This document shows positions 5,332-7,509 of a stretch of 64,000 nt of DNA, piece by piece (positions within the stretch are counted from its first letter, which is position 1; every line of letters begins with the position of its first letter). Source of the stretch: Ostreococcus lucimarinus (taxonomy: Eukaryota). The notes below the pieces were generated by a model. That model had not been told where the DNA came from and did not search any database. It saw nothing but the letters and a program-made list of their open reading frames with translations. The translations under genes were made by a program, and so were the position numbers. Location: assembly GCA_000092065.1 (NCBI GenBank), contig CP000593.1. One strand, written 5' to 3'.

Positions 5332-6105
5332 CTAAACCGTCGGGTAATAATTCTCGTCGCGGCGCGGTGGCGGGGACGGACGCGTCGGAGGCACCGTGTA
5401 CACGTACGTCGGAGGCGGCTGTTGCGCGACAACTTGCGGACCGGATCGCACACCGGCTTGCATCATCGGCGGTTGCGGCGCGGTCGTCACGCCACCCGCC
5501 ATCCGTCCCGTCGGGGCGATGCTTCCGCCGTTGTCGCGGTATCTGATTTGCACTTGCTGTTGCGTGAGCATGCACGCGCACACGCTGGCGTACGTGAGAT
5601 CCGCCAGGCAATCCACGGCGTCGGCCAATCGTTCGATATCTGGGTTTTGCGACACCATCGCGACGCAACGCAAGCAAAACGCAATTTGTTGGGTGAGCAA
5701 CATGAAGCCGATCAGACAGTTGTCGCACTGAGTGTTCATCACGCGTTGTTCGTCTTGAATCATGAAACGCGTCGTCGCCATGGCGCTCGGGAAACAGCAC
5801 ACCACCTCGCAGCACAGACACAGCTCCGGGTTCGATTGTTCGCCGCACCTCCCCGAGATACACGTGCCTCCGTTGCAGCACGTGTACTGAGACGGCCACG
5901 CCGGCCCCATTTGAAGTTTTCTCTGCCCGTACGCCGCGCACTGTCCGCAAAAGAACGCGTAACAGCAGAACCCAGGATCAGCGCACGGTGCGTTCATCAA
6001 CCCGATCTGCCATTCATTGTTATACTGCTTACGCGCCGCCGCCTGGTCGCGTTTCTTTTGACTCAACGAACGCTGCATCCGTGGTTGCTGACGTGGTGCG
6101 TACAT
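5332..6105 (-). CDS. PLAC8 (FW2.2/cell-number-regulator-like) Cys-rich family protein
   Basis: Cys-rich core (CADPGFCCYAFFCGQCAAYGQ … CLCCEVVCCFPSAMATTRFMIQDE) matches the PLAC8 CCXXXXCPC-type pattern. An ATG reverse complement is at 6103-6105. Confidence 0.6.
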   Translation of the reverse strand: MYAPRQQPRMQRSLSQKKRDQAAARKQYNNEWQIGLMNAPCADPGFCCYAFFCGQCAAYGQRKLQMGPAWPSQYTCCNGGTCISGRCGEQSNPELCLCCEVVCCFPSAMATTRFMIQDEQRVMNTQCDNCLIGFMLLTQQIAFCLRCVAMVSQNPDIERLADAVDCLADLTYASVCACMLTQQQVQIRYRDNGGSIAPTGRMAGGVTTAPQPPMMQAGVRSGPQVVAQQPPPTYVYTVPPTRPSPPPRRDENYYPTV

Positions 6106-6522
6106 GGCGCCGGTTCGACGCGCGCTGAGGGCGCGAAGCGGTCGGTTCGAGCGAGTTAATCAAACAAAAACTGTCCTCGTCTTCGCCGTGCGCGCGCGAC
6201 GACGATCGCACGCCGTCTACGCCCGCACGCCGCGCGGCAACCTCTGCGAACGCGTCAACGTTCGAACGCGCGAGGTTTTCATCAGTATTGCAAACCACAC
6301 GGACCAATCCGGCGGCGAAGACGACTTCGCGCGAAGACATCGCGCGCGGCGATGAGCGGGCGCGTCGTGCGGCGCTCAGGATGCCGCCGTCGACGACTTT
6401 GACGAGTGTGTTGTGTGTTACGGTAAGATTACACCATCCTCTCCCGGATGACGAACATCGAATCAATCAAAGCTAAATCGAAGGCGAGCTCGCCCAAACC
6501 TATATCGCGGCTACGCAAACGC

Positions 6523-6702
6523 TCAGTTGTTGAAGCGCGCGCGTCCACCAGCGCGTTGGCCTTGCGGGTTCAAAGCGGCGGCTTCCTTCTCCGCGATAGC
6601 TTGCGCCGCAGTCTTCGGCTTGCCGCCCTTCTTGTTTCTCGGCGTCGATTGCTTGCGCTTGAGAATGTCCTGCTTGTTCTCAAAGTATCTACGGCGGCGG
6701 GT
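6523..6702 (-). CDS. Mitochondrial-type ribosomal protein bS21, exon 2 of 2 (TRRRRYFENKQDILKRKQSTPRNKKGGKPKTAAQ…FNN*)
   Basis: An AG acceptor lies at plus 6703-6704. The exon continues the S21 signature RRRxYxEKxxxxRKR in phase 0. The stop TGA is at plus 6523-6525. The intron is 205 bp (6703-6907). Neither exon is reported as a single ORF in the track. Confidence 0.65.
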   Translation of the reverse strand, partial: TRRRRYFENKQDILKRKQSTPRNKKGGKPKTAAQAIAEKEAAALNPQGQRAGGRARFNN

Positions 6703-6907
6703 CTGCGTCGTCGAGTCACATCCATCATTCGTCAGTCATCGATCGTCGATCGTCATTCGCGCATGCCCATCGCGCGCTCGGGCGCGTCGTCCACCGCGGC
6801 GACGGCTCGCTCGCCTCGCGCGCCCCTCGGCGTAACCCTATTCTGGGACCTATCCGTGGACTCGTCCACTCGTCGCGCGCGCGCGTCGTCGTCGCGATCG
6901 CGCGCAC

Positions 6908-6997
6908 CTCTTGGATGTGACCGGAAGACATCACGGCCTTTCTGAATCGTCGAATCGCGCTCTCGGCGTTTTCGTTTTCACCCACAGTCACCTGCAC
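6908..6997 (-). CDS. Mitochondrial-type ribosomal protein bS21, exon 1 of 2 (MQVTVGENENAESAIRRFRKAVMSSGHIQE)
   Basis: Strong similarity to bacterial S21 and MRPS21 N-termini ([21 protein letters not shown]… / …VQEGNVESAYRTLNR…). The exon ends at a GTGCGC donor (plus 6906-6907 = ac). Confidence 0.7.
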
Positions 6998-7485
6998 GGA
7001 ACGCGCGCGTCGCTCGCGTCGTCAGTCGCGGGTCTCGAGGGGTGCCATCGCCCCGCGTCGCGCGCGCGCGCGCCGCGTCCGTCGCGCGCGCGCGCTCGAA
7101 GACGCGCGAGATATTATTTCAATCGCGCACCTCCGCTTGGAACGCGCCCTTGAACGCGAAGATGTGGGAAAATCCACCGAGAATGAACGCCATGGTCGCG
7201 ACGTCGTCGGGTTGTGCCGACGCCGAACCTCGCGCGTCGGCGCGACGGCCGCGCGAGGCGCGTGCGCGTCGATGCGCCATGTATTTATACGACATAAATC
7301 TCGTATATAATTAAATATAAGTGCGATCTAATACTCACACGAAGGCCCTCGTCCCAAACCCTAGACAGTCTAGCCAATCCGCGCGCGTCGTCGTCGCGGC
7401 GTCGTGTCGTCGCATTCGCGTGGATCTGCCTTTTTTCGAGTGTTCGCGCGAAAATATCTCGAGCGGGCGCGCGGGCGCGTTACGA

Positions 7486-7509
7486 CGTCGTGTGACGCGT
7501 CACACGACG
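7486..7509. promoter_or_regulatory. 24-bp perfect palindrome CGTCGTGTGACGCGTCACACGACG (centred on ACGCGT) in the divergent bS21 / WD40 promoter region
   Basis: Read directly; the reverse complement is identical. It is the first of three TGTGACG…CGTCACA inverted-repeat elements in this window. Confidence 0.7.

Follow-up and report, generated by a model that had tools for sequence, protein, structure and literature searches.

A three-exon nuclear gene for a probable plastid-type ribosomal protein bS21 in Ostreococcus lucimarinus

A minus-strand gene for an S21-family ribosomal protein is present in the window, the 64,000-nucleotide stretch of Ostreococcus lucimarinus CCE9901 nuclear DNA analyzed here, and the locus raises the questions of where its coding sequence begins, how it is spliced, and to which ribosome its product belongs. 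The first-pass annotation had proposed a gene of two exons, 6997-6908 and 6702-6523, whose 89-aa product would be a mitochondrial-type bS21 with its initial Met at 6997 and a resemblance to animal MRPS21. We find three exons (coding sequence 7193-7131 + 6991-6908 + 6702-6523) and a 108-aa product from the ATG at 7193; the exon at 7193-7131 and the 139-nt intron that follows it had been missed. The general idea of an intron-bearing gene for an organellar, bacterial-type S21 was sound, and we put the probability that this nuclear gene encodes bS21 (PRPS21), a plastid-type protein of the small ribosomal subunit, at roughly 0.88. The gene comprises the following features.

7282 to 7289, minus strand: TATA-box-like motif TATAAATA, a putative core promoter recognized from sequence only
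7131 to 7193, minus strand: coding part of exon 1; ATG at 7193-7191, 21 codons, MAFILGGFSHIFAFKGAFQAE, the conserved N-terminal extension
6992 to 7130, minus strand: intron 1; 139 nt, GTGCGC...CAG, phase 0, GC 0.73
7025 to 7021, minus strand: CTGAC branch-site-like motif of intron 1, its A 30 nt before the acceptor
6908 to 6991, minus strand: exon 2; 28 codons, VTVGENENAESAIRRFRKAVMSSGHIQE, first half of the S21 domain
6703 to 6907, minus strand: intron 2; 205 nt, GTGCGC...CAG, phase 0, GC 0.68
6735 to 6731, minus strand: CTGAC motif of intron 2, its A 29 nt before the acceptor
6523 to 6702, minus strand: coding part of exon 3; 59 codons plus stop TGA at 6525-6523, TRRRRYFENKQDILKRKQSTPRNKKGGKPK...RFNN, second half of the S21 domain and basic C-terminal tail
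6407 to 6522, minus strand: approximate 3' UTR; RNA contig L003 reaches 6407, and the genuine portion of contig L001 reaches 6442
6433 to 6429, minus strand: TGTAA, a candidate polyadenylation signal of the kind found in green algae

The spliced 108-aa product is very basic (pI about 11.2) and matches P0001, which is ABO99318.1/XP_001421025.1 (UniRef100_A4S641), with 100% identity from end to end. It is likewise identical to the open reading frame of MMETSP Transcript_2484, which is flagged "complete." RefSeq names the protein "Plastid ribosomal protein S21 small ribosomal subunit," a label supplied by the depositor. The S21 gene is therefore an ordinary nuclear gene that was already known: the gene, its three-exon structure, and the "plastid S21" label entered GenBank/RefSeq with the 2007 release of the O. 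lucimarinus genome, and their rediscovery is of little biological import. Besides this identity, exon 1 is supported by the RNA junction described below and by a start codon that is kept in Ostreococcus tauri and Micromonas commoda.

Splicing was examined with five RNA-derived contigs, L001 to L005, which come from five separate RNA-type samples (ERR9850626, SRR28369095, SRR28369157, JGI 3300016791, and SRR6824968) and are 99.3 to 100% identical to the window. These show transcription of the S21 gene from the minus strand. All five contigs lack intron 2, which bears out the predicted joint between 6908 and 6702 and, with it, the 205-nt, phase 0 GT-AG intron with a GTGCGC donor at 6907-6703, the boundary at 6908 where the preceding coding block stops, and the last exon, 6702-6523 (TRRRRYFENKQDILKRKQ...RFNN, stop TGA at 6525-6523). 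Intron 1 is absent from L001 to L004, which join 7131 to 6991. The fifth contig, L005, begins inside intron 1 at 7052 and thus represents partly unspliced RNA. L001 is chimeric (bases 1-30 and those beyond 448 do not match the window), so its 5' end is uninformative on the transcription start. The start site is not fixed by L002 to L004 either, since these reach upstream of the TATAAATA motif, which sits in the sole AT-rich patch of the divergent S21/WD40 intergenic region. A scan for bacterial promoters and terminators flagged just an AT-rich patch at about 7280-7340, which is irrelevant to a eukaryotic nuclear gene. A gap in L004 relative to positions 7403-7362 was considered as a 5'-UTR intron and rejected: it lacks GT-AG ends, 8 nt replace 42 nt, and it is an indel in an environmental strain.

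Comparison with related genomes gave the same structure. In O. tauri, the three exons are about 90% identical to those of O. lucimarinus and the introns have diverged, with GTGCGT/GTGCGC donors; the order of the WD40 gene, S21, a 270-aa open reading frame, and an AAA gene is also kept. Both O. tauri and M. commoda carry introns at the same two phase 0 codon boundaries, although lengths (139 and 205 nt in O. lucimarinus versus about 226 and 336 nt in M. commoda) and sequences differ. Bathycoccus has no introns at either position. Consensus boundaries, removal from RNA, a branch motif (ACTGAC is found in both O. tauri introns too), and conserved positions all agree, and both introns are spliceosomal introns of the U2-type GT-AG class. 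The first-pass remark that the genome is not intron-free is true but long published: introns occur in 16 to 20% of O. lucimarinus genes (PMC2367439), and their presence in this species was reported in 2007-2008.

The two-exon model fails at its 5' end. The codon at 6997-6995 is GTG, not ATG, and the frame translates as VQVTVG. Positions 6997-6992 are the end of intron 1 (...ttccgtgCAG) with its AG acceptor at 6993-6992, and the true exon runs from 6991. The "M" at 6997 arose because the bacterial-code list of open reading frames, in which this one is entered as 6725..6997 on the minus strand (90 aa, GTG start), prints M for a GTG start and so gives "MQVTVGENEN...". It had also been said that the gene is invisible among the listed reading frames. 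That is correct for the complete coding sequence; pieces of it are listed, however, as 6725..6997 and 7119..7295. The model does have points in its favor, in that its second intron and last exon are correct, its product scores as well as the full protein against the Pfam profile (51.9 bits), and an 89-aa "MQVTVG..." protein identical to it exists in a public collection (P0061). P0061, however, is a Prodigal-style, bacterial-style call on L005, the contig that starts inside intron 1, and GTG is not a normal eukaryotic start. Moreover, four RNA contigs splice 7131 to 6991, the exon 1 peptide is present in RefSeq, MMETSP, O. tauri, O. mediterraneus, and Micromonas proteins, and the similarity to MRPS21 is not significant (16 bits, E about 0.12). 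Compared with XP_001421025.1, the two-exon model lacks exon 1 and begins at a GTG inside intron 1. The sequence, which has no ATG there, and the spliced RNA contigs refute it, and we leave it next to no probability. The lesson is one of method: where "M" is printed for GTG, the last bases of an intron can be mistaken for a start codon and an upstream exon can go unseen, and public metagenomic and transcriptomic protein collections contain the same artifact in P0061.

The S21 similarity claimed at first sight was confirmed by profile searches. The 108-aa product matches PF01165 with 50.7 bits (E 1.4e-13; profile positions 1-51 of 55; cut-off 27), and the two gene models together span 50.7 to 51.9 bits (E about 1e-13). 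The spliced product also matches TIGR00030 with 43.8 bits against a cut-off of 28.95. Splicing restores the S21 domain, because the unspliced reading frame scores just 33.7 bits with PF01165 and exon 3 alone has no match. AlphaFold predicts helices at residues 30-42, 45-55, and 59-68 within the domain, at low confidence (pLDDT 60, pTM 0.26).

Which S21 lineage the protein belongs to was judged by comparison with ribosomal proteins of known structure. In a single-sequence phmmer search of the PDB, the best solved relative is spinach chloroplast bS21c, at 57.6 bits (E 1.4e-14). The spinach entries 5x8p_u, 5mmj_u, 4v61_AU, and 6eri_BU score 49 to 58 bits, with the alignment reaching into exon 1; solved bacterial S21 proteins score at most 34 bits. 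Mammalian MRPS21 scores 15.8 to 16.1 bits in the same search (E 0.11 to 0.14), which is not significant; the human MRPS21 query sequence was checked and is identical to 6nu2_AQ. Fungal bS21m, like the bS21m chain 8a22_Bt, stays at E 0.02 or worse even under a profile. The plastid-versus-mitochondrial question was judged from the single-sequence search only, as the profile search (alignment A2) held human MRPS21 and cannot discriminate between the two, and the mitochondrial side of the comparison consists of mammalian, fungal, and 8a22_Bt bS21m. Within that set, closest affinity is to the bS21 of the chloroplast ribosome (57.6 bits, versus no more than 34 and 16), and sequence comparison does not support the label "mitochondrial-type" or a kinship with MRPS21.

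A wider, exhaustive phmmer search points the same way. Its relatives are mostly plant and algal precursors of 110 to 290 aa with the same N-terminal motif; the nearest named ones are the Physcomitrium chloroplast S21 and sequences from Coleochaete, Ginkgo, and Tetraselmis. The nearest cluster of bacterial length is cyanobacterial (Thainema) and shares the signature V.VGENE..ESA.RRF+. These likenesses would place the protein in the Viridiplantae bS21c group and suggest a cyanobacterial-like ancestry.

The families also differ in other features. Spinach bS21c (5MMJ u, 5X8P u, 6ERI BU, and 4V61 AU) has in common with it the core RRFR..VM..G.IQE.+RRRYFENKQ+..KRK and the N-terminal extension FS..L.F+.A....V. 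The spinach precursor, however, is 180 aa long: about 70 residues come before the part that aligns, and a long acidic extension forms its C terminus. A long presequence and such a tail are both missing from the Ostreococcus protein. In land plants, the C-terminal extension of bS21c contacts uS7c, a contact that is not predicted for green algae (bioRxiv 10.64898/2026.07.03.736309). Bacterial and cyanobacterial S21 (rpsU) shares the domain but is 55 to 70 aa long, intronless, and without the N-terminal extension. Mammalian MRPS21 (3J9M AQ and 6NU2 AQ) belongs to the same superfamily, is similarly small (87 aa), and has no long cleavable presequence, yet it is not the closest family.

From the ATG at 7193, the predicted N terminus is (M)AFLLASNIFAFK. 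Exon 1 encodes GFSHIFAFKGAFQAEV, which aligns to AFSNTLYFRSAYNVQV of spinach and also to moss, Coleochaete, Ginkgo, and angiosperm-like sequences. Twenty residues precede the S21 domain, and the motif FAFKGAFQAEV, invariant in Mamiellophyceae, matches the plant bS21c extension; the more general pattern [YF][AS]N..[WYF]F[KR][GS].[YF][NQ].[QE][VI] is found just before the domain. The orthologues from this class are XP_022840148.1 of O. tauri (106 aa), A0A6T5T4W0 of O. mediterraneus (108 aa), XP_002502355.1 of M. commoda (110 aa), and sequences from Mantoniella and Bathycoccus. They are 61 to 98% identical, and all have a short N terminus and an invariant FAFKG[AST][FY]Q[AT]E. The protein had been said to begin directly with the S21 fold and to have no presequence; the 20 residues contradict the first part, and the second stands insofar as there is no long cleavable presequence.

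The 108-aa protein has no recognizable cleavable transit peptide. Just about 6 to 16 residues precede the region homologous to ordered, mature spinach bS21c (the first residue of 6eri_BU aligns with A17), while nearly all plant and core-chlorophyte relatives carry Ser/Ala-rich presequences of 40 to 130 residues. The short N terminus is kept across Mamiellophyceae and in Cymbomonas. This lowers our confidence in plastid localization but not in orthology; it is orthology and the database name that point to the plastid.

A transit peptide could in principle lie upstream, if the functional precursor had 142 or 137 aa and began at an ATG at 7295 or 7280, with the Arg/Ala/Ser-rich stretch MSYKYMAHRRARASRGRRADARGSASAQPDDVAT as the targeting sequence. 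No stop codon interrupts the frame between 7295 and 7193, the upstream ATGs occur in three spliced RNA contigs, gene callers produced the 142-aa P0058, and the ATG at 7280 lies in good context (A at -3, G at +4). The composition resembles that of a short algal transit peptide, and in-frame upstream ATGs occur in another Ostreococcus strain (P0064) and in Micromonas polaris (P0003). The extension is not conserved, however: before the shared start, no in-frame ATG occurs in O. tauri, and in M. commoda the frame is closed by a TAA that lies 21 nt (7 codons) upstream of the start. The upstream DNA of these two species rules out the extension as a conserved transit peptide, a general feature of the group. 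The upstream DNA is without conservation, against about 90% identity for the exons, and Arg/Ala-rich peptides arise from any frame of CG-rich noncoding DNA. The two ATGs overlap or adjoin TATAAATA (7289-7282), which would put the main start site downstream of them, and the MMETSP form flagged complete is the 108-aa one. None of the contigs that bear the ATGs is confined to the gene: L002 and L004 continue into the genes downstream, and L003 extends upstream through the intergenic region as far as the WD40 and P5CR genes, which have the opposite orientation. For this reason these contigs are taken as merged or read-through assemblies rather than defined mRNAs. We therefore regard the longer precursor as improbable and keep the start at 7193.

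With that start, transcription from the minus strand and removal of the two GT-AG introns yield an mRNA for the 108-aa protein. By homology, the protein would enter an organelle (most probably the chloroplast) and bind the platform cavity of the 30S subunit at the mRNA exit. There, bS21 or bS21c contacts the 3' end of the 16S rRNA (the anti-Shine-Dalgarno region) and would assist translation initiation. In spinach, bS21c lies where the mRNA leaves the 30S subunit, in contact with the 3' end of 16S rRNA (PMC5737520), and the same site is described for bS21c elsewhere (bioRxiv 10.64898/2026.07.03.736309).

The same gene model would also accommodate an S21 of plastid ancestry that lacks a transit peptide and acts in mitochondria or in both organelles, imported like the small, basic mitoribosomal proteins that have no presequence and possibly replacing a lost bS21m. 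The missing transit peptide and the short N terminus retained in Mamiellophyceae and Cymbomonas fit this idea, and one S21 family only was retrieved from Mamiellophyceae, in searches not designed for a divergent paralogue. In plants, duplicated or retargeted ribosomal proteins of one organelle have taken the place of their counterparts in the other. One paper reports such a case, chloroplast RPL10 replacing mitochondrial rpl10 (PMC2818186). The sequence affinity, however, is clearly to chloroplast-ribosome bS21c. Green plant and algal chloroplast ribosomes contain bS21c, which is nucleus encoded where studied (spinach, PMC5737520); Ostreococcus therefore needs a gene for it, and no other candidate was seen. 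The closely related protein P0068 (66% identity) has a signal-peptide-like leader typical of secondary-plastid targeting, and a separate bS21m has been described for plants and Chlamydomonas. A mitochondrial or dual role thus appears unlikely, and the chloroplast ribosome is the preferred destination.

What interest the locus retains lies in the lack of a transit peptide in prasinophyte S21 proteins. As a speculative proposal from sequence, prasinophytes (Mamiellophyceae and, independently, Cymbomonas) may encode a bS21 of plastid ancestry that lost its transit peptide and that either enters the chloroplast without a presequence, its Phe-rich N terminus serving as an uncleaved signal, or joined the mitochondrial ribosome or the ribosomes of both organelles.

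Small nucleolar RNAs are common in the introns of ribosomal protein genes. A hidden RNA gene of this or another kind was rejected for both introns of S21: across 6300-7500, the matches of an Rfam E-value scan were all to bacterial small RNAs and internal ribosome entry sites, at chance level and far below gathering scores, and shuffled versions of intron 2 fold at least as well as intron 2 itself (z=+0.63). Intron 2 does hold a 12-nt block, AGAATAGGGTTA (6844-6833), that is common to intron 2 of O. tauri.

Joining the three coding blocks listed here on the minus strand yields an ORF of 108 amino acids, the product of which has a pI of 11.2.

Features of the S21 gene
7193-7131, minus strand: coding part of exon 1; ATG at 7193, 21 codons, MAFILGGFSHIFAFKGAFQAE; donor GTGCGC follows
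7130-6992, minus strand: intron 1; 139 nt, phase 0, donor GTGCGC, acceptor ...ttccgtgCAG, GC 0.73
6991-6908, minus strand: exon 2, the middle block of the ORF
6907-6703, minus strand: intron 2; 205 nt, phase 0, donor GTGCGC, GC 0.68
6702-6523, minus strand: coding part of exon 3; translation TRRRRYFENKQDILKRKQ...RFNN*

From end to end, the product matches the O. lucimarinus database protein P0001 (ABO99318.1/XP_001421025.1) with 100% identity. P0001 carries the title 'Plastid ribosomal protein S21 small ribosomal subunit [Ostreococcus lucimarinus CCE9901]' and corresponds as well to MMETSP Transcript_2484, which is flagged complete; the match places the window in the nuclear genome of this species (Chlorophyta, Mamiellophyceae). 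Both the gene and its division into exons were already annotated, and nothing about them is new. The donor hexamer after exon 1 is the same as that of the 205-nt intron, in both introns the A of a CTGAC motif is 30 nt (intron 1) or 29 nt (intron 2) before the acceptor, and the introns are richer in GC than the exons (0.54 to 0.60). Four lines of evidence (annotation, RNA, orthologues, and splice signals) establish the three-exon model as real.

RNA contigs from five different samples matched the window at 99.3 to 100% identity. L001 (ERR9850626), L002 (SRR28369095), L003 (SRR28369157), and L004 (JGI 3300016791) lack introns 1 and 2, and L005 (SRR6824968), which begins at 7052 inside intron 1, lacks intron 2 only. 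The GT-AG rule leaves a single placement for each junction, 7131/6991 and 6908/6702. These data show transcription of the minus strand and removal of both introns, which are of the U2 type.

The first-pass annotation had described two exons encoding 89 amino acids. Its last exon translates exactly as claimed, and its 205-nt phase-0 GT-AG intron is absent from all five contigs. However, it missed exon 1, and the real product has 108 residues. In the block 6997-6908, which reads VQVTVGENENAESAIRRFRKAVMSSGHIQE in translation, GTG rather than ATG is the opening codon, and the start of the block overlaps a typical 3' splice site, so that the supposed initiator at 6997 belongs to the 3' end of intron 1; the ATG at 7193 lies about 130 nt further upstream. 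The methionine arose because the bacterial-code ORF list, which has a 90-aa entry at 6725..6997(-) with a GTG start ('MQVTVGENEN...'), prints a GTG start as M. A bacterial-style gene call on L005 gave P0061, the exact 89-aa 'MQVTVG...' protein; since L005 starts inside intron 1, the two-exon model reproduces a known artefact. That this genome contains introns is true but not news: their presence in 16 to 20% of O. lucimarinus genes, with enrichment among those expressed at high levels, was already published in 2007-2008 (PMC2367439).

Two orthologous loci share this structure. In O. tauri the three exons recur, roughly 90% identical at the nucleotide level, with diverged introns (donors GTGCGT/GTGCGC, acceptors TAG/CAG), and in Micromonas commoda the locus and an mRNA contig put both introns precisely at the corresponding codon boundaries. 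In contrast, Bathycoccus S21 is one uninterrupted ORF (Bathycoccus-like contig L011, 2001-2570) without either intron, reflecting either loss there or gain in the other lineages. Gene order is partly common to O. tauri and the window: a WD40 gene is divergent from S21, and a 257/270-aa ORF follows S21. Beyond that ORF each species has an AAA gene, though not the same one: the O. tauri gene combines PF12037 ATAD3_N with AAA, and that of the window combines AAA with a bromodomain.

The conserved start codon is the ATG at 7193. Upstream of this shared start, O. tauri contains no in-frame ATG and M. commoda has its frame closed by a TAA at a distance of 21 nt, and the nucleotide similarity of O. 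lucimarinus and O. tauri ends just before the ATG. Some spliced RNA contigs contain in-frame ATGs at 7295 and 7280 (minus), and public collections hold a 142-aa call from such contigs, P0058, with an Arg/Ala/Ser-rich extension of 29 to 34 residues. This longer form is nevertheless unlikely to be the normal O. lucimarinus product. Neither O. tauri nor M. commoda conserves the leader, a TATAAATA motif (7289-7282) overlaps or adjoins the ATGs, and the contigs carrying these ATGs do not stop at the limits of the gene: L002 and L004 continue into genes downstream, and L003 extends upstream into WD40 and P5CR, which have the opposite orientation. L002 to L004 look like merged or read-through assemblies, and the 7278-7295 extension could be 5'-UTR or promoter sequence or belong to a minor longer isoform.

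The spliced protein scored 50.7 bits on PF01165 (E 1.4e-13; cut-off 27), as the first-pass S21 assignment anticipated, and 43.8 bits on TIGR00030 (cut-off 28.95). The unspliced ORF reached only 33.7 bits for the domain and exon 3 alone gave none; therefore, the splice junction restores the domain. Membership in the S21 family, judged by these profiles, is solid. In a search against all PDB chains, spinach chloroplast bS21c (5x8p_u, 5mmj_u, 4v61_AU, 6eri_BU) scored 49 to 58 bits (E 1.4e-14 to 8e-12), bacterial S21 at most 34 bits (E 3e-7 or weaker), and mammalian MRPS21 a nonsignificant 15.8 to 16.1 bits (E 0.11 to 0.14). The spinach alignment extends into exon 1 (GFSHIFAFKGAFQAEV versus AFSNTLYFRSAYNVQV). 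When 1.84 billion representatives were searched exhaustively with phmmer, 436 matches reached E<=1e-3. Among the best 150, most are 110 to 290 aa long, with the match starting 40 to 140 residues in, and Ser/Ala-rich leaders precede the same motif (e.g., YANLMWFRGSYNAQV and YANTLFFKSAYNVQV). Named relatives include Physcomitrium '30S ribosomal protein S21, chloroplastic-like' and Coleochaete, Ginkgo, and Tetraselmis sequences, and the closest bacterial-length cluster includes S21 of the cyanobacterium Thainema. This ranking and these relatives do not support the earlier 'mitochondrial-type' label; the protein is predicted to be an orthologue of Viridiplantae plastid bS21c.

S21 of Mamiellophyceae (P0001, P0054, P0065, P0007, and others) and a similar 92-aa form from the prasinophyte Cymbomonas (P0070) have almost nothing ahead of the conserved N-terminal extension, unlike plant, Tetraselmis, and other relatives, which carry a presequence of 40 to 130 residues. 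Only about 6 to 16 residues precede the region ordered in the spinach chloroplast ribosome, and the conserved Ostreococcus protein has no recognisable transit peptide; plastid localisation is therefore suggested by orthology and the depositor's name. A mitochondrial or dual-organelle role for this plastid-type S21 is unlikely. By homology and the literature, the protein would be imported into the chloroplast and would bind the 30S platform cavity at the mRNA exit. Plastid bS21c contacts the 16S rRNA 3' end (anti-Shine-Dalgarno region) and influences translation initiation (PMC5737520; bioRxiv 10.64898/2026.07.03.736309). The C-terminal extension that tethers uS7c, described as land-plant specific (bioRxiv 10.64898/2026.07.03.736309), is absent from Ostreococcus S21. 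The AlphaFold model has low confidence (pLDDT 60).

Within intron 2, a 12-nt block, AGAATAGGGTTA (6833-6844, minus), is identical in O. tauri intron 2 (3306-3317 of contigs L006/L007), in an intron that has otherwise diverged. The block occurs only once in the 64-kb window (0.02 matches expected by chance), does not occur in the Micromonas locus, and may be shared by chance. No Rfam family was significant in the introns or at this block, and intron 2 showed no unusual RNA fold (z=+0.63). A bacterial promoter/terminator scan was set aside as inapplicable to a eukaryotic nuclear gene.

L001 (Logan contig ERR9850626_19439) is chimeric: S21 mRNA occupies only bases 31-448, and bases 1-30 and 449-1119 have another origin, the remainder coding for an unrelated acidic protein absent from the window. 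L003 (window 10466-6407) is continuous across P5CR, WD40, and S21, and L002 (7327-1901) across S21, the 257-aa ORF, and the AAA-bromodomain gene. These RNA-type contigs cover neighbouring genes of both strands, in which they reveal no introns, and both S21 introns have been spliced from them; their continuity implies overlapping or read-through transcription units in this very compact genome. L004, from an environmental relative about 99.5% identical (JGI 3300016791), has 8 nt (bases 46-53) where the S21/WD40 intergenic region of the window has 42 nt (7362-7403); an intron was rejected here, and the difference is an indel polymorphism. The Cys-rich 257-aa ORF just downstream of S21 (5332-6105, minus; e.g., GFCCYAFFCGQCAAYG) has no Pfam match; it is expressed, with 248-aa calls on L002, L004, and L005, and is kept beside S21 in O. 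tauri (270 aa). A 66% identical relative from an ENA metagenome contig, P0068 (138 aa), has a hydrophobic, signal-peptide-like leader, MKHWCVSIMLLCFCIICNFHTNGVNA/FP..., which resembles a bipartite targeting signal for a secondary green plastid.
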